A stretch of DNA of 63,876 bases, the filler included, from Craspedostauros australis (Eukaryota): the NCBI GenBank assembly GCA_030167865.1. It is 7 parts of 7 records of this genome, joined end to end, with 100 filler letters (N's around TTAATTAATTAA, not from the genome) between each part and the next. Parts side by side here need not be neighbours in the genome. Positions count along the whole stretch, not along the records: positions 27,882 to 46,348 come from JALAGF010001444.1; 6 more parts are not named here. One strand, 5' to 3'. The notes beneath the pieces are model-generated. The model made no database searches. It was given only the letters and a program-made list of their open reading frames with translations, and was not told the DNA's origin. The translations under genes and the position numbers were made by a program. This document shows, piece by piece, positions 26,139-46,348 of this stretch. Numbering within the stretch: position 1 is the first letter of the stretch; each line of letters starts with the position of its first letter.

Positions 26139-26238
26139 NNNNNNNNNNNNNNNNNNNNNNNNNNNNNNNNNNNNNNNNNNNNTTAATTAATTAANNNNNN
26201 NNNNNNNNNNNNNNNNNNNNNNNNNNNNNNNNNNNNNN
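26139..26238. other. Artificial contig linker
   Basis: N44-TTAATTAATTAA-N44. Confidence 0.98.
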
Positions 26239-27780
26239 GGTTTGGATGACCATAGGTGTCCTCTCGTCGTTTTGGAGGACGGCCTTGATCTGAGCTGTGG
26301 GGTCGGGAGGCATCTGGAAGATTGATGGTTGCATCATTGTTGGTCCTCGGTCGCTGGACATGATGTATCCGGATCGAAGGCGTCGGGGTGACGGGTATGC
26401 TATCGCTGGTCGGGCATTCGTTCGGGCTCTCTTGTTAGCATTGCTGATCTCCGGAGTGTCGGGGGTCGATGGTAGGGGATGCTTCGAGGCACGGAGTTGG
26501 CGGGTATTGGCGTTCGTGTACTCATTGTAGTTCACGGGTGCCGGGTACGCGGTTGCTACTGGCACGTCATCATCGGTTGGTTCCTCTGGTGGTGTAGGGA
26601 CCTCTGGTTGCTCATCCTGGGTTGTGGGAGGCACTGGTTCTGCCGTCTCGGTAGGTTCTTCCATGGTCGTGGTGGGGGCACTTTCCGTGTTGATGGTCCC
26701 GCTTGTGGATTTCTTGGCGGATCTGACCTGTTTGATCATCTTGATTCCCGACGTTCCCGAGGAAATGGTGGAGTCCTCGGATTCGTCGAAGAGCCCCTCT
26801 CTTTTGGGACGGTTGTTTTGCTTGCTGCTGGTTCCAGAGCTGGGTCGTCGCGACGCTTGGCTTCGTTTGGTCGACTTGCCTTCTGGTCGGTAGATGGACC
26901 CAGAATCGTCGCTGTCGCCGGGCTCTGGGATGGATGTGCTGTCCACGGAATGGTCGGCTGGGATCATGGGCTTTGGGCGTACCTTGTCGGTATACCCTTG
27001 TCCATCTCGCGTGGCTGTCAGGATTTTGGACGCCGGTGATGGTCGTGAGGATCGCCTGACGGGAGGTCTGGGGTGGCTGATTACCGCTCCACTTGCGATC
27101 TCTGCNTCNACGTCGATCACNCTTCCTGGGTCNTGCGATTCTTGGTCNNCNTCGCGNTNNGCCTCTGATTCAGATTCCAGATGGCTGGNTTCTTCTGCGG
27201 ACATCTTTTCGTCGAAGTATCCGTCAGGGATCTCGTCCAGGAACCTTCCTTCTGGTGTCTCTCCCTCTTCGAGACTGGGACGGCTGTCTTCGAGGGATGG
27301 TATTCCATTGACCATCTCATCATTGTCGGTGGGAGGAAGGGGCTCGTTTGCGAGTGCTTTCTTCTCTCGTGCGAGGTTGGTGGCGAGGGTGTCGCTTTGT
27401 TTTCGGACCATTCGTGCCTTCCTTGCGCGTGCGAGGATGATCGGGATCCGGTTCTTCCTCACTTTGAAAAAGTGGCATATGGATGGCTTCCGCATGGTTG
27501 CGCGGTACTCGTCGGGTGGTTCGCCCCATGCGCCGTCCTCCTTGGGGTAGAAGCACTGACCATCGGCTATGGCGATGCTGAGGACCTCGGTGGTTTGGAG
27601 GTCGTTATCCAGGTACTCGGAGAGGGTGAGAGGGTAGATGGATTGCTTCTCTACGTGGGAAACACGGCCGGCTGGTGTATTATCGTTTCCCTTCGTACAG
27701 AAGATTCGGACTCTGCGGCCACTGTATCCGACGACGATTCCTTGGAAGGGTCCCTTCTTTCCTGCGGGATATAGTACCCT
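26239..27780 (-). CDS. Internal fragment of a long ORF, possibly repeat- or transposon-derived
   Basis: One frame is open across the whole 1.5-kb contig (RVLYPAGKKGPFQGIVVGYSGRRVRIF... then disordered sequence). Scattered single Ns suggest a collapsed multi-copy or heterozygous consensus. Confidence 0.5.
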
Positions 27781-27781
27781 G

Positions 27782-27881
27782 NNNNNNNNNNNNNNNNNNN
27801 NNNNNNNNNNNNNNNNNNNNNNNNNTTAATTAATTAANNNNNNNNNNNNNNNNNNNNNNNNNNNNNNNNNNNNNNNNNNNN
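27782..27881. other. Artificial contig linker
   Basis: N44-TTAATTAATTAA-N44. Confidence 0.98.
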
Positions 27882-27906
27882 TGGATCACGAGTGACAAAA
27901 TGTATC

Positions 27907-28081
27907 GATTTATTTAGACGTCATTAGATATATTTAGACGTCATTTGATTTATTTAGACGTCATTCGAATTAAATAGTCGTCATTAGATTTATTTAGACG
28001 TCATTAGATATATTTAGACGTTATTTGATTTATTTAGACGTCATTCGAAATAAATAGTCGTCATTCGACTTATTTAGATTT
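27907..28081. repeat. 20-bp minisatellite (GATTTATTTAGACGTCATTN) x about 9 with an 80-bp higher-order period
   Basis: Four variant units repeated twice. No spacers. Confidence 0.92.
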
Positions 28082-28575
28082 AGGCGCTGATTGTCATCGG
28101 TATTGACGGGACTCGGTCATTTGGGCCANCGGCATCGATGCCTCGTTGTATTTGTCCGAAGTAGGACCAACATGATGTCTCACTAAGTTCTTCGAAAGGA
28201 GGTTCGTTCTTCGCCAATCGCGGAATGTCAATTGAGGCTTTCTTGTGTCTGGTGACAAAATCGTTTTTCAATGTCGAATTAGTCGTACTAGTCGAGTTTC
28301 CGTCTCCGCTGCTTTTTGCCGGGTGTCCCTGTCAAAAAGGTGAGCGAAAACACGACCACCTCCAATACAACAAAGCAAACAAAAGGAAGCAGAACAAAAA
28401 GTCATCAAAGGTGATCGGCAGGCGCGGCAGAGAGAGGAAAGAGGCATTCGTTGTTGGAACTTGTTCACACGAAGCACAACAACAAACAAGCACCCCCTGT
28501 CATGGATCGTATGCATGACACTCTACAAAGCAGACCAATTCACAAGCAGAGCAGTACAGAACAGAAAGCAGAGGT

Positions 28576-30165
28576 ATGAGCCGTTCCGAGCCTCTTCTTC
28601 CAACCTCAGATCATACCAGCGACAACAACGTCGACAACAACGACGATCACAACGACGATCACAACAACGGTAACAACGTCGATAACAACGTCGATAACAA
28701 CGACGGCAACGACAGCGACGATACGACCATGAGAGAATCAATGTTGGCAGGGCCATTCAATGCGAGCGTATTCTTCGGCTCCGTCGCAAACCTATGCTCC
28801 GCAACGTTGGGAGCCGGCATCCTGGCATTGCCATTCGCCTTCTACCAGGCCGGTCTGGTGTGCGGCCTCCTGCTGCTGTTCCTCAGCGGATGGGCCACGT
28901 GCGCCTCCATCCGACTGCTGGTGCACGTATGCCACGTGCATTCCATCGCCACGTACGAGCAGGTCGTCGAGCACGTGCTGGGAAAGCGGGGGCGCAAGCT
29001 CGTGGAGTACTCGATCATCATCTTTTGCATCGGCTGCGCGGTCGGGTACATCATCGCCGTCGGTGACATCGTGCAGCAGGTGCTGTCCTTCCCCATGTCC
29101 AAATCCACCAAGAGCATCTTCACAACGTGCGTGTGGGCCTGCGCCATGCTGCCTCTGTCGTCGTTGCGCAGGATGAAGTCGTTGGAATGCGCCAGCACCG
29201 TCGGCATCACGAGCATCGGCATTCTCCTGCTGGCAGCGACCGTCCATTTGTTGGAGAATGATTACCGTTCCGAGAGAGGCTCCATCACCCCCAATCTCTT
29301 GGACGCTGGTTCCAACAGCACCACCATCCACCGCGGCACGCTTCAATCGTTGGAACACTACATCTGGCCGGCCAATTCCAGCTGGCAATCCGTGCTCAGA
29401 GCATGCCCCATCGTATTCTTCGCCTTTTCCTGCCAAGTCAACGTGTGTCAGATCTACGACGAGATGCCGCAATCGACCAACGACGCCGCGCGCAAGAACA
29501 TGATGAACATGGTCGCTCTGGCATCCGTGTCGATGTGCAGTTTCCTCTACTCCAGCATCTCGCTCGTGACGCTGATCGATTTCGGCAGCGGCATCCTGCC
29601 CAACATCCTCAGTTGCTACTCGACCAAAACAGCCAACATGCTGCTGCACGTCGCGTTCGGCGCGATGGCGATCGCCGTCGTCATGGCCTATCCCTTGAAT
29701 ATCTTCCCTGCCCGCGTCAGTATCTCGCATATGATCCACAAATCGAGGCAAGAGGCGCCGGAAATCGACGATGAACGCAGGACGCTGATAGCCGATGACG
29801 TCGAATTGGATGCAGAGAACATCGAAGATAGTGACGAGAACGTCGACGAGATCAGCGCAGACGAGGAGGAGGCTATGTCCGATTGGGAACATTACGGTCT
29901 CACGTTTGTCATATCGGCAGGCACGTTGCTGTTGGCATTGATCCTGCCCAATATCTCCGTCGTATTCGGTCTGCTGGGCGGCACCACCAGCTCGCTGCTC
30001 GGCTTTGTCCTGCCTGGATTGCTGGGAATCTACGGCGATACCAACAACGAACTTGCCTGGAACGATCGGCTGTCGGCGTGGATACTGGTCGTGGCAGGCA
30101 CTGTCGTCGGTATTCTGACGACCGGTGTGACTGTCTACAGCACGATACAAGAACTTGTGGAGTGA
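28576..30165 (+). CDS. Amino acid/auxin permease (AAAP, SLC38-like) transporter
   Basis: Motifs NLCSATLGAGILALPFAF, FFAFSCQVNV and GLLGGTTSSLLGFVLP, with about 11 TM segments. Confidence 0.93.
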   Translation: MSRSEPLLPTSDHTSDNNVDNNDDHNDDHNNGNNVDNNVDNNDGNDSDDTTMRESMLAGPFNASVFFGSVANLCSATLGAGILALPFAFYQAGLVCGLLLLFLSGWATCASIRLLVHVCHVHSIATYEQVVEHVLGKRGRKLVEYSIIIFCIGCAVGYIIAVGDIVQQVLSFPMSKSTKSIFTTCVWACAMLPLSSLRRMKSLECASTVGITSIGILLLAATVHLLENDYRSERGSITPNLLDAGSNSTTIHRGTLQSLEHYIWPANSSWQSVLRACPIVFFAFSCQVNVCQIYDEMPQSTNDAARKNMMNMVALASVSMCSFLYSSISLVTLIDFGSGILPNILSCYSTKTANMLLHVAFGAMAIAVVMAYPLNIFPARVSISHMIHKSRQEAPEIDDERRTLIADDVELDAENIEDSDENVDEISADEEEAMSDWEHYGLTFVISAGTLLLALILPNISVVFGLLGGTTSSLLGFVLPGLLGIYGDTNNELAWNDRLSAWILVVAGTVVGILTTGVTVYSTIQELVE

Positions 30166-30561
30166 TCGTCGCATGCATATCATAATGATTTCTGTCTGCT
30201 GTAGAGTATTGTACTCTAACGTACTTGCAGGTGCAATATATGCAACTCTGAGCAGCTGTGACCTTGTGCTATTCTTCGTCGTGCTGGTTTGCTGTGAAGG
30301 GTGCTGTTGACGATACCAAGGGCATTCAATTGAGCATGAAGTCTCTCTAGCTTCCAAGCACGTAGTGCGCGGTTCTCACCTGTTTTCATCCGAGTCGCAG
30401 ATCTTCCCCAACACAACACACAACCCCAAGAAACAGACTGGTGACCTCAACCTTGACTCGACATCGAGGCCCGCATCGACAACATCACCCACTCCTTCAC
30501 ACAAGCCACACCTCATCTCACGCCAACATTCATAAACACGCAAAGACGCAAAGACGCGGCA

Positions 30562-31290
30562 ATGAAGATCAACAAACCACCCGCTCCCTCTGCAGCGACC
30601 GCGACGGCGCAGGATTACATCCGCTTCCACGGCATGCTGTGCAGCCCCTCCACCGCCAAACGATGCATCGAATCTTTCGGTCATGGCAGGACGCTCTTTG
30701 CCTCGCAAAGCATTTACGATCGCCTCGGCAAGCCGCAGCAAGACAACCACCAACTCCTTACGACCTTCGATTGGAGCGTCAACAACAAGGAAAACGGCGT
30801 GACGTCATTGTCGGTCGTCTCCTACTACCTCCTCGTGCTGGCGTCTTTCACGGGTCTGTGCAGCTTGTTGCGACGCACGAAGCTGCTGCATCACAAGCAG
30901 TGCGATATAGCGATCCATCGCGACCATGACTGCGTTCGATCCACCCAGTTTCCGAGCCTGTCGATTCCCAACGCCGTCATTCGGTACTTGTTCGATGTGG
31001 CCCAACAGCAACCAGAGCAACCGACGGAACAGACCCAGTTGATAAAGACGACGACTGCAAATACCGAGCCATCTCTGAGGCTCGTGCAACGATTCGAATT
31101 TTCCTTCGGTTCGTTCCTGTCGGTGATGATGCTACATTTCGTCAGCGATCACAATGGCCGAAAGGGGCGGCATTTGGTGGAGACCTACGAAATTCATTCC
31201 CCACTCCTGAATCGATTCAATTCCTTCTGCAACCGATGGTTGAATGGGAGAAGAGAGAGGGTGGACAACAAGAACCGTGGCGGAGATTGA
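30562..31290 (+). CDS. Hypothetical protein
   Basis: 242-aa ORF with a CA-rich leader and typical codon usage. No family recognised. Confidence 0.6.
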   Translation: MKINKPPAPSAATATAQDYIRFHGMLCSPSTAKRCIESFGHGRTLFASQSIYDRLGKPQQDNHQLLTTFDWSVNNKENGVTSLSVVSYYLLVLASFTGLCSLLRRTKLLHHKQCDIAIHRDHDCVRSTQFPSLSIPNAVIRYLFDVAQQQPEQPTEQTQLIKTTTANTEPSLRLVQRFEFSFGSFLSVMMLHFVSDHNGRKGRHLVETYEIHSPLLNRFNSFCNRWLNGRRERVDNKNRGGD

Positions 31291-31936
31291 ACTGGAGGAG
31301 AAAGATGAGAGGGTAACACGAAAACAGCGTTCCGATGCGTCAAGATCATCTGCGGCGTGCATTCTCATAAGCATCGCCGGCCATGCTTCATGCCTGGAAC
31401 ACGATGGCATGCCCAGGCAACGCCGTGGGAATACAAGGAGTCAAGTGGAGCGGTGAGCTTCCACATTTTTGGGAGTGGACAGTACAATCATTCGTTTGTT
31501 CTGTCGTTGTACTATTTGCATAGTAACCAATGGGTACAGGATAGAGTTTACTTCAACACTCAACTTTTCAGCTTCACGGCAGTACGACGCACATCGTTTA
31601 TCGCAAAGGCAAGGGAGGCCTTGCTATTCTCCAATCGTAGACTTCCCTGTGGCTGTTGCTCACTCGTGTTTGTCGTTTCGAAGAATTGTTCGCTGTTCGC
31701 AGAGAGGCGAAAAACGTCCAACCTCACAGAACATCAACAACTCGACAAGCAGGCCAAGAAAAAGGGCGAACAAATGCCACCAGCAAGCAACGCGGAGAGG
31801 CAGCGTCTCCCATCTGCAGTTCCCGACAGCCACTCCTCGGACTTCCATCATAGTAGAATAGTATTGTCGCTGCAGAGTCAAGAGAGGCACAACGAGACGA
31901 TCGAGTACGACCTATCTGACAACTGTTGCTGTTGGG

Positions 31937-31945
31937 TATATATAT
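31937..31945 (+). promoter_or_regulatory. TATA-like box about 25 nt upstream of the tRNA-like element
   Basis: TATATATAT in an otherwise mixed-composition context. Confidence 0.35.
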
Positions 31946-31961
31946 CTCACTTGTACCGAAC

Positions 31962-32047
31962 GTGTCAGGAGCGCTGGGACGCGTGAAGTACTGGATTTAC
32001 TTTTGTCCTCCTCGGGAGGGTGCGGGTTCGATTCCCGCCCTGGCACG
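31962..32047 (+). ncRNA. Non-canonical tRNA-like cloverleaf (8-bp acceptor, 5-bp T stem, long variable arm, GGA in anticodon position)
   Basis: Acceptor GTGTCAGG/CCTGGCAC plus G. D-like arm GCGC-TGGGAC-GCGT. Anticodon arm GAAGTA-CTGGATT-TACTTT. Variable arm TCCTCC-TCG-GGAGGG. T arm GCGGG-TTCGATT-CCCGC. Confidence 0.65.
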
Positions 32048-32130
32048 AACAAGTGACGATTTGACACTATCCACCCCTCGATCCAATGATAGTCCTAATA
32101 CCGAACAGCATTCAACCTTTCCTCCACAGC

Positions 32131-33252
32131 ATGAGGAAGGGCGGGTGGGTGGGCACAATGATCCTGATTCTGGCATGCATCATGATGGCGGTCATGGCCG
32201 TCACGAGAACTGTCGCTCCGGACATGGTGGAAACGGGCAGGACAATCCAAGTTTCCACCGAGGATCGTATCCGTGGCGCTGTGTTTGGAGCGCTGGTGGC
32301 AGACGCGATGACGTTGGGTTCTCACTTCGAGTACGATGCCTCAAGGATTCGTCGCGCCTACAACGATCACCTCATCCCTCACTACATGGCGCCTGGCGAC
32401 CGTCTCGACATGCAGAGGGACGATGGCGAGTGGGCAGCTCGACGATACCATCCGGGAACAGTCGCTGGCGATCAGACAGACAATGGCCAGTACAACCTCC
32501 TCGTCTTGGAGTACCTGGCGGAGATCAACGACAGCGACACCACATTCCAAGACAACGCCAAATTCCTCATGCATTGGGAAGACCGCGTCTTCCGCGACGA
32601 TTGGAAGCAATGGCGATGCGCCATGACGAACATGACGCGGCGTTTCATCCACATGGGACGCAGCAAGAAACAGCTGGGCGGACATGCCGATGTCTTGGTC
32701 ATCCGATCGACTCCATTCCTGGGATTCTCCGACGACGAGGACACTGTCGTCGAGTACGCGCAAAAGGCGATCTTCACGCACCGCGGCAGGTTGACGCGCT
32801 TGGGCAACGCGTTCTTCACACGCGTGAGTTTTCGGTTGATCCATGACGATGCGACACCGCGCGCTGTCATCGAGCAGGTCGCGGACGATATGGAAGATCA
32901 TTGGATATCTCAGCGCGTGAAGGAAGCCCTGACGACGCGGCAGGAGTTTGCGGATGATGCGGCGCTGACGCAGAAGGGGAGTTCAACGCAGGAGGTGTTG
33001 CAGGGTGCCATCTACTTCATCGTGAAGTACGCGGACGACATGGAGATGGCGTTTCAGGCCAACACGATGGTGGGCGGCGACAGCGCAAGTCGTGCCATCG
33101 CCATCGGGATGGTGCTGGGGGCGTATCATGGTGTGGATGCGATCAGTTCGCCGTGGAGAGAAGACTTGAACAGTTGGTATCAAACCGAGGAGTGGTTGGC
33201 AAACATGCCGCTGTTGCGTGGAACACATGCCCGAATTGCGACTGAGCTGTAG
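32131..33252 (+). CDS. ADP-ribosylglycohydrolase family protein (J1-crystallin-like subgroup) with predicted signal peptide
   Basis: Motifs DRIRGAVFGALVADA, GDQTD and NTMVGGDSASRAIAIGMVLGAYHG. Hydrophobic N-terminus MILILACIMMAVMAV. Start could be 32086, 32131 or 32158. Confidence 0.85.
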   Translation: MRKGGWVGTMILILACIMMAVMAVTRTVAPDMVETGRTIQVSTEDRIRGAVFGALVADAMTLGSHFEYDASRIRRAYNDHLIPHYMAPGDRLDMQRDDGEWAARRYHPGTVAGDQTDNGQYNLLVLEYLAEINDSDTTFQDNAKFLMHWEDRVFRDDWKQWRCAMTNMTRRFIHMGRSKKQLGGHADVLVIRSTPFLGFSDDEDTVVEYAQKAIFTHRGRLTRLGNAFFTRVSFRLIHDDATPRAVIEQVADDMEDHWISQRVKEALTTRQEFADDAALTQKGSSTQEVLQGAIYFIVKYADDMEMAFQANTMVGGDSASRAIAIGMVLGAYHGVDAISSPWREDLNSWYQTEEWLANMPLLRGTHARIATEL

Positions 33253-33384
33253 GTTAGCGTGGAATTTAATGAGCGACTCAACAAGAACGGCCATTGTTGC
33301 GAGAGAGGGAGGGACATACTGCACACAGGGAAAGCTCGCTCATGTAACTCATAACTCTCTGCGAGTACATAGTACTTGGCGTAT

Positions 33385-34332
33385 CTACTTCCGAACCACA
33401 CCAAGCTTCTCCTTGAGGGTGTTGATCGCCAACGTCCACATCGCCTTGAGCGGCGAACCTTCGACCTCCTGAAGAATGACGATGTTGAGAGCGAACACCA
33501 AGTTGGCCTCATCCACAATCTCCTCCTTTTGCGCTTCAGTCAGATCCAACGCATTCAAGCGAGCATACCAGTCCGTGATGAAGTTCTTGGTGGACGGGAT
33601 ATCATCGAACGTGTAAAATGCAACGCCTTTGCCAGCTTCCAAATTCAACGACCGCGTCGCCATGCCGCCCATCATCTGCCCGCCGAACAGATCGCCGAGA
33701 TAGCGCGTGTACTGATGCGCGATGAGGAGGTACGGCTTCGTCTCGGCAATCTCGCGAATGCGATTGACGTAGGCCTGCGTTCCGGCTGTGGGCTCGATGA
33801 CGGACTTCCATTCTTGACCGTAAAAGTAGTCCATGTCGCGTCGCAGCGCGTCCAATCGCCGCAGCGGGACGTCGTCCAGCTGCTGCACGTCGGTGTTCGT
33901 GGTCGTGTCAAAGACGTGCTCCATGGCTTCGTAGACGAAGTAGAGCGACGTGATGAGATTGCGGTACGATTCCTTAGTGCTGAGACCCTTGAAGAAGCCC
34001 GTGACGAAGGCCGAGTTTTCTGCCATGGAGTGGCTCTTGCGCGTGCCATCGTCGAGCTGGAGGGCCAATCCCTGCTTACGTGGATTGATGTCTTCTTCTG
34101 GTGCAGTTGTTACTGTTGCTACTGCTGTCGTTGCTACTGTTGCGGTTTCAGTGTCTTCATCTTGAGCTGCGGAAGCCAGCGCGCTGTGCTTCTGCACGAA
34201 TGACGCGGCATTGATGTTGACATTGTTGACGCCGTTGGAGACGACAAATGCCGATGCGCTGGGTGACAACATCAGCAAGCATGGTACGGCTGCCACTGCA
34301 ACAGCTGCCACTGATGAGACGTAGGTCTTCAT
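33385..34332 (-). CDS. HO1: Plastid-targeted heme oxygenase
   Basis: GTRKSHSMAEN (proximal His) and LLIAHQYTRYLGDLFGGQ, plus a bipartite presequence with ASA-FVV. Confidence 0.93.
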   Translation of the reverse strand: MKTYVSSVAAVAVAAVPCLLMLSPSASAFVVSNGVNNVNINAASFVQKHSALASAAQDEDTETATVATTAVATVTTAPEEDINPRKQGLALQLDDGTRKSHSMAENSAFVTGFFKGLSTKESYRNLITSLYFVYEAMEHVFDTTTNTDVQQLDDVPLRRLDALRRDMDYFYGQEWKSVIEPTAGTQAYVNRIREIAETKPYLLIAHQYTRYLGDLFGGQMMGGMATRSLNLEAGKGVAFYTFDDIPSTKNFITDWYARLNALDLTEAQKEEIVDEANLVFALNIVILQEVEGSPLKAMWTLAINTLKEKLGVVRK

Positions 34333-34619
34333 GATGCTACTCTATTACTCTATTGTATTGTATGGAATACGTGTGATCGACTTCTTGGTTGCAGTTGCTG
34401 CTCTTGTTTCGGATTGTGATGAGAGCGCCGATGATCCTCATCCAACACAACGCTCCGCAGCGTTGAGTTGGAATCGGCACAAATTCGCGTTTTGCGTGAA
34501 CGTCACACAACGAACGCAAATTCTGAGTCAACAGTATCCGACGAACATCGCAGTCTATCAGAAAGGGTCTAGATGATCTACTGGCAACATTTTCTATTGC
34601 AGTTAATCCCTCTCTACCT

Positions 34620-35984
34620 CTAATCATACTGACTATCATCAAAGACGAAGTCCTCGTTGCTGATGTGCGAGTCCTGATCTGAGTCTGGCTGAGTGATTGG
34701 GTAGTCAGCTTCATTCTGCGTACTCATCAAGTTCATTTGGAATCCCTGTCCAATTCCCGCGTTGTCTCCAGAATCAGAGGCGTGCACCAGCCCATAGTCG
34801 GCGTCGCTGTTGCAGCCCGGTTCCTCCACGACGTCATACAGTGTTGACACGTTAATTCCAGTCACTTCATGTTCTGACAGTGGCTCCTCCGCTTCCTGAT
34901 CAGGCTCCTGCCCTTCTTGCTGATGGCGATCATACTGTTCGTCTGCATTGCCAAGGTGCGGAAGCGCAAGCGGCGGTGGAACGGACATGGACAAGTCAGT
35001 CCTGGTGCTCTTGATGCATTGCAACACGTCGCATGGTTGGGTTGCCATCGCGGACTGGCTCTGTGTTTGTGATCGGTAATCGAATTCGATTGCTTCCTCA
35101 TTGCTCGTCTCGTTGGAATTGAGCTTAGCTGACATGTCAGCCTTCTTCGTATCATGCACGTCCGTCGCCACATCCACATCCATCACGATCGATTTGCTTT
35201 CCTTCTGTGGAAGCTGTTTGGCAATTTTGTCACCATTATGGACGCTGTTGGCATCGTCAACATCCAAAGCAGTTTCATTTGACTCTTCGTTCATGGATGC
35301 GTCCATCTGAGTGCTAGTGCTTGGCTCGACCGCCTCGATCGTGAAGGTTGGTAACCGGTCATCATATTCGGCGGACCACAGCTGCAATGCTTGCAGGTCA
35401 TCCTTATCCAGTTTGGGCTCGCGTCGCGCAGATCGCGGTGACTGAGACCGAGGTTTCGTGGCCTGTCCGAGAGATCTGATATCTTCCAACCCACGGATGT
35501 AGAACCGAACACCAGAAAGACCAGCGAAGAAGTTGTGGCCTTCCACCAAGTCCTGGGTCTCGCTGCGATGGATTTTCGGCATGTTGTATCAAATTCCCTG
35601 CTTAATAAAACCAGCCTTTGCCAGGAGTGCCTCTGCATCATCATCGGTCAGTGGAGCGTACGCCGATCGAGGCAGATCGCTGCGCTTCACATGCGCGAAA
35701 CAGATCCACCATTGGAGCTTGTCCCAATCCAATGTACTCAGTTTGTACACATTCTCCTCCATTAACGGTATTCCCTTCATGTTGAGGAATCGCCGCAGGT
35801 GGTCCAGTCTGTCAAAGTGACCATTGGCACCATTCTGCATCTGCACAGTCTTTGGCAATCTGTACCAGCCACCTTTGTATACAAATTCACATTGTGCCAG
35901 CAAAGCCCATGCCTCAAGGTCAGTCAGAGGATAATAGAGCCTAAATGTAATGGCTGTGGTCTTGTTGGCTGTATTTGGCTGTGA
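34620..35984 (-). pseudogene. Disrupted coding segment, probably exon 2 of the 41917-38657 gene
   Basis: One frame from 35984 to 34620 with a single in-frame TGA at 35591-35589 (KQGI*YNMP, compare KGGWYRLP in the preceding repeat). It carries the same repeat type as the 1102-aa ORF (PLT..EAW.LL...GF). Confidence 0.65.
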
Positions 35985-36333
35985 CTAGAGCCTTGATTGG
36001 CAAGCTGTCCAAATGTGTGGTCTTCTGATCACAAGTAGTCAATTGAGAATACTGATGATGGGTGAAGAAACATGCGGATTATGAGAGTTAATGCTATGCT
36101 TCTTGTTTTGGGGGGGGGGATCTCCTGTGATTACCCTCAAGAAGGGTGTGGGTTTGCATAGTCCCAGTACTATGGGAGGTTCCCTTCATCGAGTCGGGAG
36201 TGAGGCAAAGGTTTTCGGTGTGCGTTCCTGCGTGGTACCGATCCTTTGATCTGGTAGTCTTGTACCGGCATCAAGTTTTCGGGGGGGGGGGGGGGGGTTC
36301 CGATGACCTGGTCATTGGAATCCTTTTTCCACG

Positions 36334-36355: not shown

Positions 36356-38493
36356 TTTTTTTCACCAGGGAATGGAAAGGCCAAAAAACCATCGACCGGT
36401 CAGCTGTGAACCTGAGACCCTCGGCCGCGAAGCGGCTGGGCCTCGAACCACTGGAGAGCAGATCAGCTGAGGGGCTCCATGCCAAGGCTTGTAATGGCCA
36501 AGGCAGGATGCACCCCCGCACGTCATACGCATCCCCGATTTGCCTGGGTAGGTACCTGTCACCTGCCACTGGGGGCAGCAGGCGCTGGGTTATGTAGGAC
36601 TCGAACCCACTAAAAAGGCCGCAACTGCACATAGGAGATATCAAAGCCACGCCAGGGTACTAGGCCGTTGACAGTGCAATGCCCCCACACACACCCGGTT
36701 TCGCCAGTACGCAGCGCCCCTTACCCATTCGGGCCTTGAGCCACAGGTACATGAGCGGCTCCTTCTGCTACTGGAGGTGGAGGAGGGAGTGCCCAAGCGG
36801 CGTCCAGCAGACGCACGCATCGACAAAGGAACGCAGCGACTTGATACCCATGCTCCCCCATGTCGGGCAGGGGACCAAGGGCGTTAGCTACCGGGGAGGG
36901 GACATTCATACCTGCTGGCAGTTGGCCAGTGATGATCAGGGCTACAGAGTCCTGAGAGACATCGCTGACAGAGGTGTCTGTTGTCATGGAGCCGGAGGGC
37001 TCTGCGTGAATGCTGGGGAGCTCAGAATCTTCATCGTCAGGGGTGTTGCTACCCACTGACTCGTCATCATTGACGTTCTCAGGAGCCCGGAGGCCCCACT
37101 CATCGTTTGGAAATCGGTCTCCAAGCTGCCCACCCAAGGCGAGCTGGAGCCAAAGTCCTTTGTGAAAGCGCTTGTGGCGGTAGACCGTCACAAGTGACTG
37201 CAGGAGCTCCTCTTGTGCTGTGGCCATTGCCGGGCAGTTGAAGAGCAGGTGGATCCCAAAGCGGTGGCCGGTCTGAACCGGCGCATTGCAGCATGGGCAG
37301 TGGGAGCCTTGTCTGGCAGAGAGGATCCCAATGCGCCACCACATGATAGTGTGGAAACCTGTTGCGGTCCCAGGGGGGAGACCAGCATGCTTCGTCACCA
37401 GGGAGTGGTGCTGAAGCTGGCGTTTCATGTACTGGATGCTCTCGGGTCGGCTTCTGTAACCTGTGTGCCAGATATCCTTCTCTCGCTTCGCGAGCGCGTT
37501 TTGGACCTGCTCCCGGATGATGGTGGCGTTGGAGGCGGAAGGGTCAGCAGGGACAGACCAATGCTTGGTGAAGGCATCATCGAACTTGGGCATGTTGGAC
37601 CAAATCCAAGTGAGCGTGCCAAAGCCCCAGGTGCGCTTGTGACATCGCATGGGGAGGCGGAGGAGGTCGCCGAGGTGGCAGTCAATGGCATGGGCCTTGA
37701 CAAAGGCGCAGGCCTTGCGGCCAGCGGCCACAACATAGATCGGCGGTAGGCAGGTCTCCTCCCAAACAGCGAGCGACAACATGTCAAGGGTCCCGAAGGG
37801 GATGCCTAGTATGAGCTTGATGCACTTGCCGACTGCGCGCTCGAGGTGGTCCGTGATGGCCTGGCACATGCCGAACAGCTCAGAGCCGTAGAGCAAGCGC
37901 GGGAGGACCACGGCCCCGATGACGTAGATTTTGGCATTGAGCGGAATGACGGGACACTTGAGGAAGGGCTTGAGGGCATACATCGTTGTCCTGGCCAGGT
38001 TCGACTTGATGGCAGCCAGAGACTGCGCTGTGGGCGTGGATGTGAAGGTGAGGCCCAGGTAGGTGTGCTCCTCAACAAGGGGGACAGGGCCGCCACTGAT
38101 GGTGAGATCGTGGAGGTGCTGAACAGCCTCCAGTCGCTCCGCGGGCAGGACCCCGGTCTCGAAGAAGGGCAGGATGCCGCACTTCGCAGCGTTGGTGCGC
38201 ATCTCGTTGGCCTCAGCCCAGGCGGTGACATGGTGGCAAGCTAGGGCGACGTTGTCGGCGGTGGCCGCCAGGGTGGCGGCATCGTCGGTGAAGAGGAGCC
38301 CCCCAATGGGGATGGTGGGATAGACCCCGTCGTGCGAAGAGCCGTAAGGGACATTGACGCCTCTGAGCCCGTCCCAAATATCGTCAATGAAGATATTGAA
38401 GAGGACACAGGACAAGGGTCATCCTTGACGCACCCCGCGGTTGAGGGTGACCACGTCGGAGTAGACTGGCGTGCCGCCATCGAACAACCTCAC
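36356..38493 (-). mobile_element. 5'-truncated, inactivated non-LTR retrotransposon (LINE)
   Basis: RT motifs RGVRQG*PLS (stop at 38421-38419), LFNIFIDD, GLLFTDD and TYLG. Zn knuckle CPCC...HLLFNC. A7 tail. Perfect 22-bp direct repeats at 36334-36355 and 38494-38515. Confidence 0.93.
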
Positions 38494-38515
38494 TGTCCTG
38501 GGTTTCAAAGATCTC
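38494..38515. repeat. Target-site duplication copy 2
   Basis: Identical to 36334-36355 and adjacent to the truncated 5' end of the RT. Confidence 0.92.
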
Positions 38516-38608
38516 CTTGAATCACTTGTGCCTGCTCCAAACGTGGTTCAGGCCAATTCGTGAAAAAACGAGTCATGTGTGTCAGGAAATCCTTCCTTAG
38601 CCTAACTG

Positions 38609-41600
38609 CTAGTTTAGATCTATTAGAGGATGATCGAAGTTGACCTGTGTTGGTACCTGTGTTTGCGGGGCACGATCGCTTCCGCCATCACTGTCTGGTA
38701 GGTTTGATTGTTCCGGTTTTGCGTTCGATCCATCGACAGCGACCTCCTCAACGTCGAAAACGCATGACGATGCGGTGTCTGTCACGTGTTGAGATTGTTC
38801 TGTGCTTTCAGAATCTTCATTCACGGCGTCATCATCGTCTGCGTCGACCGCACCAGACTCCGATTGACCTCGCACCAGCAACGGCGCACTCGATGTTGCA
38901 CACCACAACTTGAGCGCCAGGAGCTCATCGTCCGACACAACGCGATTCTTGGAGGAGGCACTTCGTGATCGGCGACCCGCGGATGACGCACTGGCCGATG
39001 GGCAGATGATGTCAAAGTTTGCGACACCCCTCAGCTCCCGACGAAGCTGTTGGAGGTTTCCAAACTGCGTGCAAGCCAGCTTCGAATTTGGTGGTGCATG
39101 AATGCTTCCATCCTGCTGTCGTTGAAATCCATACCGCTGAAGCAGATCCCAAGCCTCCGTGGAGGACAACAACGGCGCTTGCTGCCTCTGAGCCAGATTC
39201 GTTCCGTCCGGGAGATTGCTGTGGCGCACAAGCAGATCCAGGATGTACCTATCATCAGCACTCAGGTGTTCTGTGTTCGGCATACCATTGTGCAGGAAGT
39301 GTTGAAAGACTTCCGTCGGGCTCGAGAATCGCTTCGTGTACTGGAGGCGACTTTCCCCGTCGCAGTAGTACCACCCATTGGAGTATTGAACCCCAGTGCC
39401 AGGGCTGCAAGCGAGTTCGTGCTTCGGAGCATAATGAAGATCGAGCATGTATTCTGCCCACGGTGCGTCCTTGCGCTTCTTTGTGGACGTGGTAGCTCGC
39501 TTCTGCGGTCGCGAGTTACTCGTCTCGGACGTGCGCATGCCATCGCTCTCCAGCTCCGTGTCACCATCGTTTGGGTTAGACTCATGGTACTCGTGGTGCT
39601 TGCGTTTCTTCGTTCGATTGTGCCGCTCTGATTGCGTAGGGTCATCTTGCTTCGCAGGTACCTTTGCTTCCTCATCCTTCGCAGCTTTCGCCTTGGTAAA
39701 GCGACGCTGCAGGTCTGCATCCTGGGCATCCTGCTTCTGGAGGAAATCCACCAGTTCATCGACTGTAGCGAAATAATCCTTGTTGCGTTCCAGCTTCATT
39801 TTCTGCATGCTGGACGCACCGAGATGCGCGTGTTGCGGTGGGATGTACCACCAATTATCCAAGGCGCTCAAACCCTTCATCACCTTCCAACCATTCTTCT
39901 CGATGCGGTTTCGAACGTTGCAGGGGAGGTAGTACGCGCCCTCGGATTCGATGGACGTGACGGTTCCCGATGACGATGCTGGGCTCATGACGAGTGCGGA
40001 CTCGTTCTGCGATTCGTCATGGTCGAAATCACTGCCATCGGATGTCGTTTCGTCTGGCGAGCTGTGGTGTGCAGCTCGCGGCGGTGTAGATGGTGGCGTT
40101 TCCAACTTCTTCTTCTTGTTCTTTTTCTTCTTCGGGACCGTTCGCTTGGATTCTGTCGCCTGCAAGGTCGCGAATTCCTCACGGATGGCTGATCCGTACA
40201 CGCCGAAGTAATCGCGAGCCTTGCAATAGTTCATGACGTCCTCTGCTTGGATGAAGAAATCGACCCCATGCACCATTTTCAACTTGATCGTTTTGTCCTG
40301 TGCAGCTTGGCCCAACGCAGCGATGGTTTCCGGTCGTCCATAGACGTAGTTGTGAAATTCGAGCTGCGTCTTCGTCATGGCGCAGCGCACGTGCCGCCTG
40401 AGGGAGCCGCTTGAGATGAACGCCCAGCCAAGCACTGGTTTAAGGATCTGGTGCCACAGATGAGAGAGGCGATAGAATTCATGCTCGATATCGGTCTCCG
40501 TTTTTTGCTTTGGTCGACGTTTGATCCCGGTGCTGTGACGGTAGCCGAGCTTCCTTGGCGACTTGATGTGCCGGGAAGACTGGCGGGATCCCTGCGTTGC
40601 CGCTGATGCAACAGATTGGCTATCGGCTGGTGAAGATGGGATGAGTGTGCGTTTGGCCTTTGGCGCTCTAGTGGATTTTGGCGAAGTGACGTGATGCGCA
40701 CGTTCGTCTTCGTCTTCGTCGGCGGATGAAGGCTCATCGCTCACTTGGTTCTCATCGTCAAGTTCATCTTCATGATTGGCGCCATCATTCTGCCCGACGC
40801 TCATGTCCGCGTCCTCCCTTGTTTCATGGATCTGGGTGTCGTTCTCGCTGTCGCTGGAACTTGCGCTCTCCGATTCCTGCGACAGATCGGCCGGCGCAGA
40901 TCGCCTTGCCGCGACGGTATTGAAGAGCGGTCCATTCCATTGCAGCTGTTTGCGACAGAACTGCTGCAGTTGCTCTCCGTTCATGGGATCGAAAGGCTTG
41001 GCGGTTGCCGATGGCAGGACGTACATGAATTCTGTGGTGGCGGCATCCTGCGTGCGAACCTGATGCGACGTCATGCCCGCAAAGGTGAGCTTGCGCAGGA
41101 CAGCGCCAAAATCCTCGCTGTCGCGCAACGGCGTTGTCAACTGCGGCAGAACGGTTTGCGGCGATCTGGGCGGAGTCGACGTCGCGGGTGCGCTGTTGCG
41201 ATCGGCGGTGACTTCTCCATCCGCGCTGCCAGCCGATTCGCCACTGACGGAAACGGCCACGCCGCTGGTAGGATCCTGCGGTTCGGTTTGTGTGGGCTGG
41301 ACGGTGTTGGAAGGATTTGCGGTGGCAGTTAGCTGCGCGTTGGCGCGAGAGTGATTTCCCAAGAAGATAAGGCAGATCCTCTCGAAGTGTCCCGGCCGCC
41401 TCATGTGAGATGCGGAAACGGTGACCTCATGTGCATCGCGACGGGCCGTTTTTGCCTGCATGAAGGCGTAGGCCTCATCCAGAGCGCGGTGAAAACAGAT
41501 GAAGTCATCTTCGGAGGCGAAGAGTTCGCGTCGATGACGCTGCTTCGGGATGAACCGAGTTGTGCCAGCGTAGTAGTTGACGTAGTCATGATCGTCCTTC

Positions 41601-41917
41601 ACCATCGCCAGCTCGGTCTGGAATCCCAGCAGCCGCGCCACCTGCGGGGTTTGTTCCGGCGATGACATGGAGAGATTGGGGAGGTCCGTCTTAATGGTGA
41701 ATTCCATGGCAGCCATCGACAATTCATGCTCCACCGCTTCCGCGTCCTGCGATGGGATGGATTGCTGAATATCCTTGAGGCAGGTATCCAATTCCGGATA
41801 GAGCAGAGCGGGCCAGTGGAGCTTGTCCGCTGATGCGGAGTCCGCCTTGCAGTGCTTGCCGAGTCGGTTGTCACTTTCGAAAGGAACCCATACGAGGATC
41901 CGGGATTTCGCATCCAT
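38609..41917 (-). CDS. Large protein with an N-terminal PWWP/Tudor-like segment and internal aromatic-rich repeats (probably exon 1)
   Basis: LVWVPF...HWPALLY at the N-terminus. Repeated modules (W..L...GW...Y..P...DYF...L..F) separated by acidic and basic linkers. NLS-like KKKKNKKKK. Confidence 0.75.
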   Translation of the reverse strand: MDAKSRILVWVPFESDNRLGKHCKADSASADKLHWPALLYPELDTCLKDIQQSIPSQDAEAVEHELSMAAMEFTIKTDLPNLSMSSPEQTPQVARLLGFQTELAMVKDDHDYVNYYAGTTRFIPKQRHRRELFASEDDFICFHRALDEAYAFMQAKTARRDAHEVTVSASHMRRPGHFERICLIFLGNHSRANAQLTATANPSNTVQPTQTEPQDPTSGVAVSVSGESAGSADGEVTADRNSAPATSTPPRSPQTVLPQLTTPLRDSEDFGAVLRKLTFAGMTSHQVRTQDAATTEFMYVLPSATAKPFDPMNGEQLQQFCRKQLQWNGPLFNTVAARRSAPADLSQESESASSSDSENDTQIHETREDADMSVGQNDGANHEDELDDENQVSDEPSSADEDEDERAHHVTSPKSTRAPKAKRTLIPSSPADSQSVASAATQGSRQSSRHIKSPRKLGYRHSTGIKRRPKQKTETDIEHEFYRLSHLWHQILKPVLGWAFISSGSLRRHVRCAMTKTQLEFHNYVYGRPETIAALGQAAQDKTIKLKMVHGVDFFIQAEDVMNYCKARDYFGVYGSAIREEFATLQATESKRTVPKKKKNKKKKLETPPSTPPRAAHHSSPDETTSDGSDFDHDESQNESALVMSPASSSGTVTSIESEGAYYLPCNVRNRIEKNGWKVMKGLSALDNWWYIPPQHAHLGASSMQKMKLERNKDYFATVDELVDFLQKQDAQDADLQRRFTKAKAAKDEEAKVPAKQDDPTQSERHNRTKKRKHHEYHESNPNDGDTELESDGMRTSETSNSRPQKRATTSTKKRKDAPWAEYMLDLHYAPKHELACSPGTGVQYSNGWYYCDGESRLQYTKRFSSPTEVFQHFLHNGMPNTEHLSADDRYILDLLVRHSNLPDGTNLAQRQQAPLLSSTEAWDLLQRYGFQRQQDGSIHAPPNSKLACTQFGNLQQLRRELRGVANFDIICPSASASSAGRRSRSASSKNRVVSDDELLALKLWCATSSAPLLVRGQSESGAVDADDDDAVNEDSESTEQSQHVTDTASSCVFDVEEVAVDGSNAKPEQSNLPDSDGGSDRAPQTQVPTQVNFDHPLIDLN

Positions 41918-43114
41918 GGCTGCTGGATGAATGCTGGGTTGGTCGCTCTTGTGGTTGTTGATGGAAGCGTCGGCCGTGGAAGAACAAAGCTGCTGATTCC
42001 ACCTGTATGATCAGTATTGTATTAGTCAATGCAACCCTCAGTGGCACGCTGCCAACACCTTGGTTTGGATTACGGCTGCTGCCGTTTGCCTTTTGTTTGT
42101 GTTTGTGCTCTTGGCTAAGTTGTGTTTGCGTCCAAACGATGTTCGAAGTCAGCGTGTCGAAGCCGATACGGAGGGCAATGCGCAATGCAATGCTCCCCAG
42201 TCGATGTGGTTTGATGAGAACAGATTGGAGGAATGGGATCACCAAGTCTTCCGCGCTGGTCGGCCTTGATGGGTTGATGGAGAGGAAGGAGCCAACAACG
42301 ATGTCGATTGGGGGTTTGTTCCTGTTTGCGCAAGTGGAGGGAGATTTGTGCGAAGCGTCATTTTTGTGTTGTTCCTTCCTTGGTACTTTCTCCTGTACAA
42401 TTTACATACGAAATTTTGTACGCATAGTTCCTACTGGTTTTTATGGCGCGAAGTGAAAACGTGATTTGTGGTGGTTCAGTCGTGGATATTATCACGAATG
42501 GACTCGGGACCTGATGCCAAAGATTCTTGGATTTGGATGTCGAACACGAGAAAAGAACTGACGCACAAAAGCTTCGCTCGGAATCCACTTCCGACAAAGC
42601 CAGAATTCATGTTTGCGGGCGACAATCTGTCTCATTTCTGTTTGGATCATCAACCAGTGAGCAGGGAGCCTCCCTCCTTGGGATTTATGATGCAGACATC
42701 ACCATCTATTACCACACTTCATACAGGAGAAACAACGATAGATCTCACTTCAAGCCGGGCTCAACACAACTGCGTTCGATGGGATTATCCTTTGTCTCGT
42801 CCTTTCCCCGTGCTCGTTGGGGCTCGATTTGTTAGCATTGGAAGATGCTGTTTCCTTCGCTCCAGTCGGTTTCAGCGCGCGCTTCCATCTCCTCTCCTAA
42901 ACGACCGAGCGGACGGGCCACGAGGGATCTGAGTTCTTGGAGAGGGTTGATGCTTGTGGGGTCTGGCTTTCGCGATGGATTGCCGAAGATGCTCTCTCCC
43001 GACAACCCACCCTCAGGCCCACACACACCCCATCAATCGTCCATATTCTCCACATGATCTCACAAAACGAGCAACAGGAACAGGAAGATCCTCACCATCA
43101 CGACAACAACGACG

Positions 43115-44575
43115 ATGACGATGACGGACTTCGATTTTGCGACGGCATTGCGAGACAACATCGCAGCCGTGATTCTCCTGCCACTGGGGCTTGCCATCGG
43201 ATGGTTGGTCGTCGCCTTGAACAGACCACCCGCCAAGGATGCTCCTGCGAAGAGTCCCGCTGGGATCATGGAGTCTGTCAAGATGTTTGCGTCGTCCGAG
43301 GTACCTTGGTGGCATCTCCAACTTCGGGAGTCCTTGGGATCGTCCATCTTCCAACACAACATCCCCGCCCCTGGTGGTATGTATGTCCTCTGCTCCGCGA
43401 AGCATCAACGTGAGGTTATGCTCGACAAGACTACGAACAAGCCGCTGGGCATGTACGCAGGCTTCGACAGTATGATTGGACACAAACAAATGGCCACGCG
43501 CTCCACAACCGACCCAAGCTTCAAACAGATGAAGAAAGCCGTCGCACACTCATTTTCCTCTGCGGAAGTCAATCGAATGAATTCCATCTGCATGAAGTAC
43601 GCCAAGCAATGGGAAACAGACTTCCTCGAGAAGCTGGCAGACACCGACGCCACGTTCGATCCGTCCATCGAATTGCCGAAGACCGTCTTCAAGTCCATCA
43701 TGGGCGCAGCCTTCGAGTACGAATCGACTCCTGAAGACTTCGATTTGTTCACATCCAACTTCGAAGTGGCTGCACGTGAATTTGCCTTCCGTCAGGCCGC
43801 CAATCCTTTGCGGGCTGCATTCAGCTTCATGATCCCAGAAGTGTGGGCGGCGCGTAAATGCGGCGATGCTTTGCAGGACTTTGGGAAGAAGATTTTGACA
43901 GCCTATCGCGAGAATCCCAACAAGTCGGAGCACAACACGTTGATCAAGGTGATCGAGTCCAACCCGTACGATATGTCCGAAGAAGCGAAGGTGGCAGAAC
44001 TGCTTATGTTGCTCATTGCAGGCTTCGATACAACGGGATACACCCTTGCCAGCACCGTCGTGTTGTTGGCCAAGCATCCCAACGAGATGAGAGACCTGCG
44101 GCAATCGTTGTTGCAGGATGATCCAGCGAAATCCAAGGATCATCTCAAGCGTGTGATCACCGAATCTCAACGCATGGTCCCTGTTGCTTCGATGGGCTCC
44201 GCTCGTCTCGCCAATCGCGACTTCATCTTTGTGGATGAGCCCTCCAAACGCATGGTCAAGGTGCCGAAAGGTGCCACCCTCTTTCTTCCACAGATCACGG
44301 CTCACCGAGACGAGGCGGTGTTCGAAGATGCTACTCAGTTCAAGCCTGATCGATGGGAGAATCCGACCAAGGAAATGGTACAGAACTTTATTCCATTCGC
44401 CGTGGGCAATCGCAACTGCCCTGGCCAATCGTTGGCGATTGCTGAACTCTACACGGTGTTGTCAAATATCCTGTCCAAGTACGAGTTCGAATTGGTGACG
44501 GAAGGCAAGCTGGATTTCTTCTTCACTTTGAAGTATGCCAATACCAAGCTCCGAGTGAAGAGGGCGGAGGTTTGA
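43115..44575 (+). CDS. Cytochrome P450, copy 1
   Basis: N-terminal TM anchor, I-helix AGFDTT, ExxR (ESQR), FKPDRW, and heme motif FAVGNRNCPG. Confidence 0.96.
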   Translation: MTMTDFDFATALRDNIAAVILLPLGLAIGWLVVALNRPPAKDAPAKSPAGIMESVKMFASSEVPWWHLQLRESLGSSIFQHNIPAPGGMYVLCSAKHQREVMLDKTTNKPLGMYAGFDSMIGHKQMATRSTTDPSFKQMKKAVAHSFSSAEVNRMNSICMKYAKQWETDFLEKLADTDATFDPSIELPKTVFKSIMGAAFEYESTPEDFDLFTSNFEVAAREFAFRQAANPLRAAFSFMIPEVWAARKCGDALQDFGKKILTAYRENPNKSEHNTLIKVIESNPYDMSEEAKVAELLMLLIAGFDTTGYTLASTVVLLAKHPNEMRDLRQSLLQDDPAKSKDHLKRVITESQRMVPVASMGSARLANRDFIFVDEPSKRMVKVPKGATLFLPQITAHRDEAVFEDATQFKPDRWENPTKEMVQNFIPFAVGNRNCPGQSLAIAELYTVLSNILSKYEFELVTEGKLDFFFTLKYANTKLRVKRAEV

Positions 44576-45211
44576 GGAGGAACCCGAAATAAGTGTTTCA
44601 AAGTTGCGGCAATCGTTGCATTCATCGGTACATTCCAGAATCACAAGCAACGAGGTCTCGGATAACATTAACACGCGATATCATCTTTCTATTGGTTCCT
44701 TGTTCGCGCCACTGCTGACACAATGACCCATAAATCTTACTCGAACTCAGAGAGGACACGGCTGCGCTCGGCAAGATTGGGCTCGGCAAGATTGGGCTCG
44801 GTCTTGTCCTTTCATGGTCGAATCGCTCACGCCCGGCGGAGCTTTTGTATTCACCCCGGTCGTTCTCAGTACGCGCGCTTCTGTCTCCTCTCTCTGTGTC
44901 TCTCTGACCAACGAAAGATCCTGCTTCTTGCGAGGAGGTCGATGCATTTGAGGCCCGAGTTGCCTCCGTTGATGATGGGAGGGAAGACCAGGACATGTGG
45001 AAAGAAAGAGAAAATGAACTATCATGTCTTGTGGTGCTCTGATTTCTGTGATGGATTGCGACAGATGCTTCCTCCAACAATTCTCTCCCTGGCCAACACA
45101 CCCCATCAATCATCCATAATCTCCACATCATCTGACAGATCAAGAAACAGGAGCAACAGGTGCAACGATAAGCTCACTATCACCATCGCGATCACGACAA
45201 CAGCCGCCACG

Positions 45212-46348
45212 ATGGACTTCGATATTGCAACGGCATTGCGAGACAACATCGCATCGGTGCTCCTTCTCCCGCTCGCACTTGCCATCGGATGGTTGGTTGT
45301 CGCCTTGAGTAGACCACCCGCCAAGGATGCCCCTGTGAGGGTCCCTGGTGGGATCATGGAGTCCATCAACGTGTTGCCATCCTCCGAAGCACCATGGTGG
45401 CATCTCCAACTTCGAGAATCCTTGGGATCGTCCATCTTCCAGCACAGCATCCCCATCCCTGGTGGTATGTACGCTGTCTGCGCCGCAAAGCATCAACGCG
45501 AGATTCTGCTCGACAAGACGGCCGACAAACCAATACAACTATACACAAGTTTCAACAGCGTTCTAGGACACAAGCAGATGTCCACACGCTCAACGCATGA
45601 CCCCCTCTTCAAGACAATGAGGAAAGCCGTTGTGCACTCATTCTCCTCCACAGAAGTCAAACGGATGAATTACATCTGCACGAAGTACGTCAAGCAGTGG
45701 GAAACAGAGTTCCTCGAGAAGCTGGCCGACACCGACATGACCTTCGACCCATCCATCGAGTTGCCGAAGATCGTATTCAAGTCCATCATGGAAGCAGCCT
45801 TCGAATACGAATCGACTCCCGAAGACTTCCACTTCTTCGCGTCCAACTTCGAAGTGGCTGCACGTGAATTCATCCTTCGCCAAGCCATCAATCCTTTGCG
45901 GAAAGCACTCAGCTTCATGATCCCAGAAGTCTGGGTGGCGCGCAAATCCTGTTCCGCTTTACAGGACTTTGTGAAGAAGATTTTGAAAGCCTATCGCGAG
46001 AATCCCAACAAATCGGAACACAACACGCTGATTAAGATGGTCGAGTCCAATCCGTACAGTATGTCCGAGAAGGAGAAGATTGCGGAGCTCCTTTCCTTGG
46101 CTATCGGCGGTTTTGATACAACGGGATACACACTTGCCAACACTCTCACGTTACTCGCAAAGCACCCCAAGGAGATGAAGGAGCTGCAGCAATCGTTGTT
46201 GCAGGGCGATCCGGAACAATCCAACGGTCATCTCAAGCGTGTGATCACCGAATCCAAACGCTTGATCCCTGTTGGTGCATTGAGTTCCGTTCGCGTCGCC
46301 AGTCGAGACTTCATCTTTGTGGATGAACCTTCCAGTCGCAAGGTCAAG
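45212..46348 (+). CDS. Cytochrome P450, copy 2 (3'-partial at linker)
   Basis: Colinear close paralog (MDFDIATALRDN, GGFDTT, ESKR), cut before the heme Cys motif. Confidence 0.93.

Follow-up and report, generated by a model that had tools for sequence, protein, structure and literature searches.

A tRNA-shaped element upstream of an ADP-ribosylglycohydrolase gene of Craspedostauros australis is probably a solo LTR of a tRNA-carrying TRIM

Just upstream of an ADP-ribosylglycohydrolase (ARH) gene of Craspedostauros australis, within the 63,876-nucleotide stretch of DNA analyzed here (hereafter, the window), lies a tRNA-shaped sequence of 86 nt (31962-32047, + strand), the reality of which at these coordinates we confirmed. 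It forms the core of a 150-bp dispersed repeat unit (31917-32066, + strand; TGACAAC...TTTGACA), which is bordered by a short direct repeat and recurs in unrelated sequence contexts. The element is probably a solo LTR of a tRNA-carrying TRIM in a new host lineage. The assignment that we favor, with moderate confidence, is to the Helenus-type TRIMs (TRIMp3), with a tRNA-derived module located within the LTR. Most likely, the element is what remains of a mobile element and has no special regulatory role for the neighboring gene, and a new class of regulatory tRNA mimic is not currently supported.

The preliminary description of this locus had drawn a cloverleaf with an 8-bp acceptor stem, a G discriminator, a short D arm, 6-bp anticodon and variable stems and a T arm, and all of these parts were recovered where it had placed them. 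The acceptor stem pairs GTGTCAGG (31962-31969) with CCTGGCAC (32039-32046) and is directly followed, on its 3' strand, by the discriminator G at 32047. A single A links the acceptor to the D arm, which has a stem of 3-4 bp and a loop of 6 nt, as judged from the sequence, RNAfold and ARAGORN. The anticodon stem contains 6 bp or, alternatively, 5 bp and a G.U pair of the 26:44 type; its loop, CTGGATT (CUGGAUU in RNA), carries GGA at the anticodon place (31993-31995, + strand) in both the sequence and the ARAGORN drawing. The variable arm is long (6 bp), and the T arm (5 bp) includes a perfect T-loop or B-box-type motif, GGTTCGATTCC (32025-32035), which is the sole + strand match in the window. 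There are 0 mismatches in the five helices. Both the minimum free energy (MFE) and the centroid structures computed with RNAfold correspond exactly to this cloverleaf (-36.6 kcal/mol, z -2.08), with 8 of 200 shuffled sequences folding as well. The combination of an 8-bp acceptor with a 5-bp T stem was drawn alike by RNAfold, ARAGORN and Infernal. With its G+C content of 61.6%, the element is unlikely to be of organellar origin, which we infer from its composition.

Several conserved tRNA positions, namely U8, A14 and the purine at position 37, are altered in the element. Position 37 is T (U in RNA), U8 is absent with a paired G8 in its stead, U occupies the place of A14, and the linker is reduced to the single nucleotide mentioned above. 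An internal run of four T residues (32001-32004, + strand) is possibly a weak Pol III stop, and no T-run of 4 or more follows the cloverleaf downstream. The T at position 37, the lack of U8, the internal T4 and the lack of a clear terminator had all been reported correctly from the sequence.

When ARAGORN was run on the window, as had been proposed, it called a tRNA-Ser(gga) at 31962-32047 and drew the same 8-bp acceptor. The call goes beyond chance, because 60 dinucleotide shuffles of the window yielded only 1 call. By contrast with this call, the Rfam scan of the window at gathering level returned 0 matches. The top match in a permissive local scan with Infernal, the other proposed check, was tRNA-Sec (RF01852), with 27.8 bits (E 0.0012) against an Rfam cut-off of 47 bits; the analogy to tRNA-Sec is weak. 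A canonical cytosolic tRNA-Ser was rejected on the grounds that there is no gathering match, the fold is not 7/5, and U8, A14 and purine-37 are absent; cytosolic serine decoding in eukaryotes relies on A34/I34. A eukaryotic tRNA-Sec was rejected as well, given the GGA triplet, the 8/5 fold, the D stem of 3-4 bp with a 6-nt loop and the score of 27.8 bits, below 47. The tRNA-Sec features that are present in the element are G73 and the long variable arm. Thus, of the tRNA-Sec-like architecture proposed at the outset, G73, the long variable arm and the long acceptor hold, and the 8/5 rather than 9/4 fold, the short D stem and GGA speak against it. The suspicion that this is not a translating tRNA agrees with the missing gathering match, the tRNA-Sec score of 27.8 versus 47 bits, U37 and the absence of U8.

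The unit extends beyond the tRNA-like part by 45 nt upstream and 19 nt downstream, and it holds a TA run, a flank helix and the cloverleaf. The TA run that had been noted upstream is present: TATATATAT (31937-31945, + strand) is TATA-like and is located inside the unit, 16-24 nt before the tRNA-like part begins. The flank helix, formed by TCACTTGT (31947-31954, + strand) and ACAAGTGA (32049-32056, + strand), was likewise found and enters the MFE fold of 31917-32066. Its rarity is only mild: an 8-bp helix was reached in 118 of 5000 shuffled flanks and at 84 of 4848 random places in the window, so that the helix is unusual at a level of about 2% and was not counted as support.

The evidence for copies comes from contigs of a public sequencing run (X1) aligned on positions 28000-36000 of the window. 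These data represent one run of one study, possibly of the sample from which the window itself was assembled, and the kind of run is not stated ('RNA?' being a guess). Three X1 contigs match the window to exactly 32066 and then become unlike the window and unlike each other; beyond this point, the three sequences agree at 0.62, close to our own estimate of about 0.56 for three unrelated sequences. One of the contigs, 277 nt in length, matches 31982-32066 and then runs on for 193 nt without fitting the window. At the other end, a contig of 213 nt matches 31917-32011 only, its first 120 nt having no fit to the window. The 3' boundary (32066) is accordingly set by three contigs and the 5' boundary (31917) by one. 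The unit is therefore an interspersed multicopy sequence, with at least 3 contigs carrying unrelated downstream flanks and 1 carrying an unrelated upstream flank, and the divergence of the X1 contigs at its ends implies that it occurs in several genomic or transcript contexts. Dispersed copies of this kind, which the preliminary description had named beforehand as an observation against its own functional interpretation, were found in the X1 contigs in other sequence contexts.

The copies differ from the unit in the window at few places. A C>T change at 32013 falls into the loop of the variable arm and a C>T change at 32036 puts G.U in the place of a G-C pair in the T stem, both leaving the cloverleaf structure intact; in addition, the TA run is 2 nt shorter in a copy (place 31937). 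The summed X1 contig depth at the element amounts to 171.5, versus 8-23 in neighboring contigs, a figure that is not a copy number. By our own arithmetic on depth bins, X1 leaves about 30207-30476, 31564-31916 and 34253-36000 without cover. The idea of reading X1 as a transcriptome from these gaps was discarded, and missing cover was not counted as evidence. Among the runs searched, X1 was the only one to contain the region, and no run listed as RNA did; two further runs matched only in pieces of 18-21 nt, elsewhere than at the element.

No second unit was detected in the 63.9-kb window and, for lack of a second copy there, we regard the unit as solo. Compared with the rest of the window, including the 3' regions of the LINE, the unit shows no similarity longer than 12 nt. 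The 49-residue translation of the unit gave no candidate among proteins of 26-86 residues. Scans with a T-arm/acceptor pattern recovered one metagenomic and one viral locus, both unrelated to the element; they look like 3' ends of bacterial or phage tRNA- or tmRNA-like sequences, contain no ARAGORN gene and were set aside. With the anticodon-arm stretch as the pattern, a viral scan gave no match.

The unit carries the marks of an insertion. It starts with TG and ends with CA, at the boundaries given by the X1 contigs, and a CTATC pentanucleotide abuts it on either side, as a 5-bp direct repeat or putative target-site duplication (TSD): the left copy (31912-31916) adjoins the 5' boundary, and the right copy (32067-32071) adjoins the 3' boundary set by the three contigs. 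TG...CA termini in combination with a duplication of 4-6 bp are characteristic of LTR elements inserted by an integrase. Among the 61749 frames of 150 nt in the window, a 5-bp abutting repeat is present at 84, TG..CA ends are present in 378, and the two coincide in 2. The unit boundaries were fixed by the contigs, independently of the window, and were not picked to fit the TSD. The weight of the TSD argument depends on these exact boundaries, because with a slack of 2 nt per end and a TSD of 4-6 bp, a repeat is seen at 22018 of 193608 random places.

Helenus elements are miniature LTR retrotransposons with tRNA-derived sequence in their LTRs and, together with Cassandra, constitute TRIMp3; in the available portion of their description, the TSDs are 5 bp in fungi and plants (Selaginella) and 4 bp in animals, many solo LTRs have 5-bp TSDs, LTR lengths go down to 120 bp, and the tRNA predictions are mostly judged nonfunctional (Kojima 2024, PMC10886601). 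The unit has the features of a Helenus-type LTR in its tRNA-derived content, TG...CA ends, 5-bp TSD and interspersed copies. When box A was compared by eye with that of Helenus, YGG was matched and TRGCY was not. In the 63.9-kb window, we saw no full-length element, primer-binding site (PBS) or polypurine tract (PPT) with the unit, and no protein domains of LTR retrotransposons, copia included, were recognized with Pfam; the sole Pfam-recognizable retroelement in the window is the LINE.

What this analysis establishes is the cloverleaf, together with the limits of the unit, its TSD and TG/CA ends and the existence of copies in other contexts; we infer the LTR identity, the mobilizing enzyme and any transcription of the unit. 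According to the scenario that we propose, a Ty1/copia-like integrase would have inserted a two-LTR element, creating the 5-bp CTATC duplication, and recombination between both LTRs would then have left a single one. The cloverleaf would go back to a tRNA or SINE sequence that the element captured. The B box of the cloverleaf may, together with the TA run ahead of it, have acted as a portable promoter in the life cycle of the element, rather than as part of a decoder, and the polymerase would probably be RNA polymerase III, by analogy with Cassandra. Although the sequence is far removed from canonical tRNAs, with U37, a D loop of reduced size and one pair more where the acceptor and T stems meet, its helices are all intact; this may reflect selection on the RNA fold, and such selection may have been for stability, processing or packaging.

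Other explanations of the unit have to be weighed against this scenario. The GGA triplet, the discriminator G and the long variable arm agree with one another as features of the serine type, all helices are intact, the copy variants keep the structure, the T arm is perfect, and the common downstream flank stops just past a TTT. These properties could be expected of a dispersed family of functional noncanonical tRNA-Ser(GGA)-like genes or tRNA mimics, in which the 45-nt and 19-nt flanks would be promoter and terminator, and such a family would be compatible with spread by a mobile element. We nevertheless consider it unlikely, since an exact TSD and TG/CA ends are unexpected for a plain gene family, a T4 lies inside the RNA, no Rfam gathering match exists, U37, the missing U8 and A14 and the one-nucleotide linker depart from tRNAs, and GGA is at odds with the use of A34/I34 in eukaryotic cytosolic serine decoding. 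Furthermore, a 13-bp acceptor/T domain is associated with about 100-fold weaker EF-Tu binding in the case of bacterial tRNA-Sec, according to the available part of the source (PMC7609411). A combined version, in which a mobile serine-type tRNA-like gene with an 8/5 fold and its own upstream TATA gives rise to an RNA that is made, processed and perhaps serylated, while also seeding promoters or 5' leaders near genes such as ARH, has in our estimation only a slim chance, and the functional-RNA reading of the element is altogether doubtful. The sub-threshold scores with the curated models would also fit a lone tRNA pseudogene in decay or a cloverleaf that arose by chance; this is barely credible in view of the helices without a mismatch, the copies in several contexts and the 1 false ARAGORN call in 60 shuffled windows; the pseudogene alternative raised in the preliminary description is disfavored by the same intact helices, copies and shuffle test.

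A different mobile element, either a tRNA-derived SINE mobilized by one of the LINEs of this genome or a MITE mobilized by a DDE transposase, would also explain a tRNA-derived core with a B box and dispersed copies with TSDs, and a LINE with APE and RT domains is encoded in the same window. The structure of the unit makes this an improbable, minor candidate. It begins 45 nt before the tRNA-like 5' end, with the TA run included, it has no SINE body and no A-rich or repeat tail, the copies part 19 nt past the tRNA-like end, and it has no stretch of more than 12 nt in common with other parts of the window, the LINE 3' regions among them. The unit is hence not a classical SINE head, and the upstream 45 nt favor an LTR, because an RNA copy starting at the tRNA-like 5' end, as in the SINE route, would omit them. 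For a MITE, the terminal inverted repeat is merely TGNCAA and the internal 8-bp inverted repeat lacks an adjacent duplication; TCACTTGT and ACAAGTGA were tried as MITE terminal repeats and rejected, given that the common unit reaches beyond them and no duplication abuts them. The mundane alternative offered at first, a repeat or SINE head, thus survives in its repeat origin, with copies found, and not in its classical SINE form.

The remaining explanation concerns the neighboring gene. The ARH gene (32131-33252, + strand, with an alternative ATG at 32086; Pfam PF03747, E 3.6e-31) is located outside the element and, as had been described, directly downstream of it: ATGs 32086 and 32131 are 39 and 84 nt downstream of the cloverleaf, and 20 and 65 nt, respectively, beyond the end of the unit. 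The common strand, the distance of 39-84 nt to the ATGs and the TA run upstream of the cloverleaf start could suggest that the structure is dedicated to the ARH mRNA, as a 5' leader or as a signal for its processing. Yet at least 3 other copies continue into unrelated sequence before any ARH sequence, and the TSD points to insertion into a pre-existing upstream region, so that we regard a dedicated leader as highly improbable. The original proposal of a stand-alone tRNA mimic or a dedicated ARH 5' leader is not supported, in view of the copies in other contexts, the TG...CA ends and the 5-bp TSD. Because the other copies diverge at 32066, 19 nt past the tRNA-like end and before both ARH ATGs, the adjacency to ARH looks incidental. 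The unit could now supply ARH with a promoter, in the form of the TA run, or with 5' leader sequence.

The genes around the element were examined as well. An amino-acid transporter gene (28576-30165, + strand) lies upstream of the element, itself preceded by a 20-nt AT-rich unit repeated eight times in tandem (27887-28106). The top homolog of the ARH protein is 45% identical and is assigned by its UniRef name to the diatom Odontella aurita; bacterial homologs are up to 42% identical, for example in records named Methylophagaceae and Sulfurovum, and by sequence comparison the algal ARH gene family could be of old bacterial origin. ARH is followed by a heme oxygenase gene (33385-34332, - strand), the N-terminal extension of which contains ASAF behind a hydrophobic stretch, which we take to resemble the motif by which proteins are targeted to plastids in diatoms and other heterokont algae.

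Farther away, the window contains a 1765-codon open frame (55417-60714, + strand) with an RT domain and an APE-type endonuclease match below the Pfam cut-off, that is, a LINE-type retrotransposon. Two long open frames of 565 and 1133 codons without a Pfam match occupy 36721-42010 (- strand), a region that may be an uncharacterized repeat or retroelement. Just downstream of these frames are the B-box-like motifs GGTTCGAGTCC at 36597 and GGTTCGAGGCC at 36439 (- strand), which were dismissed as tRNAs since ARAGORN made no call there. Two duplicated gene pairs, the tandem cytochrome P450 genes at 43058-46396 (+ strand) and the EamA-family transporters at 5474-8711 (- strand), both show about 76-81% DNA identity. 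A dense tandem array with 16/32-nt periodicity and 36 overlapping register copies, assigned to two repeat families (62258-63200), overlaps a 301-codon open frame (- strand). Paired 44-nt N runs with 12 bases between them (1199-1298, 26139-26238, 27782-27881, 46349-46448, 50235-50334 and 61491-61590) are probably masking or scaffolding marks, which break some open frames; single Ns are scattered at 27106-27189.

If confirmed, the assignment would extend the tRNA-carrying miniature LTR retrotransposons (TRIMp3) to stramenopile algae. As far as the literature was searched, this would be the first TRIMp3 with a tRNA outside fungi, animals and plants: the available portion of the Helenus article contains no mention of stramenopile, diatom or protist (Kojima 2024, PMC10886601), and our search of later literature on these elements found none on algae. 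At the locus itself, the finding is a candidate solo LTR placed right at a gene promoter or 5' leader. In practice, unusual predictions of tRNAs or tRNA-Sec-like RNAs in diatom genomes call for caution, because they may lie within LTRs. Eleven non-identical tRNA-Sec predictions, unexplained, have been listed for Fragilariopsis cylindrus (Secmarker, PMC5330540), and to relate them to LTR-borne elements is speculation; the accessible portion of the Secmarker supplements does not mention the diatom genera looked for.

Eukaryotic tRNA-Sec, as described in the available part of the source (PMC7609411), has a 9/4 fold, a 6-bp D stem with a 4-nt loop and the anticodon UCA. The element, for which tRNA-Sec is the best Rfam match, resembles it in G73, in its long variable arm and in having more than 7 bp in the acceptor, but it has GGA instead of UCA, 8/5 instead of the eukaryotic 9/4 and a D stem of 3-4 rather than 6 bp. 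The same three likenesses, acceptor length, variable arm and G73, connect it to the bacterial allo-tRNAs, as far as these are covered by the available text (Mukai et al., PMC5389517). The identity misfits, however, because allo-tRNAs are bacterial and have 8/4 or 9/3 folds (12 bp in total), whereas the element is 8/5.

Among mobile elements, the tRNA-derived SINEs (SINE2) resemble the unit in that they are dispersed, are flanked by TSDs and have a tRNA-derived head containing a B box; the unit differs in its 45 nt upstream, its TG...CA ends, its fixed short TSD and the lack of a body or tail. The Ty1/copia-like CoDi elements of diatoms, in the available part of their description, have LTRs of 153-844 bp and TG/CA ends in 23 of 26 families (Maumus et al. 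2009, PMC2806351). They are thus similar to the unit in their termini and in LTR lengths starting from 153 bp, and are different in being autonomous and several kb long, with no tRNA-like LTR content reported in that part of the article; CoDi elements are plausible mobilizing partners of the unit. Cassandra TRIMs likewise have LTRs that contain the module of a small-RNA gene, Pol III promoter included, but according to the available text this module is derived from 5S rRNA and not from tRNA, the hosts are land plants and transcription from the 5S promoter has been demonstrated (PMC10886601). The closest counterpart is Helenus, which, by its main-text description, shares with the unit a tRNA-like sequence with a GGTTC box B in a short, LTR-sized unit and the 5-bp TSD (PMC10886601). 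In contrast to Helenus as described there, the cloverleaf of the unit has all of its helices paired, its fold is 8/5, its variable arm is long and TRGCY is unmatched; the unit was seen as a solo unit without PBS or PPT, and it resides in a diatom-like stramenopile.
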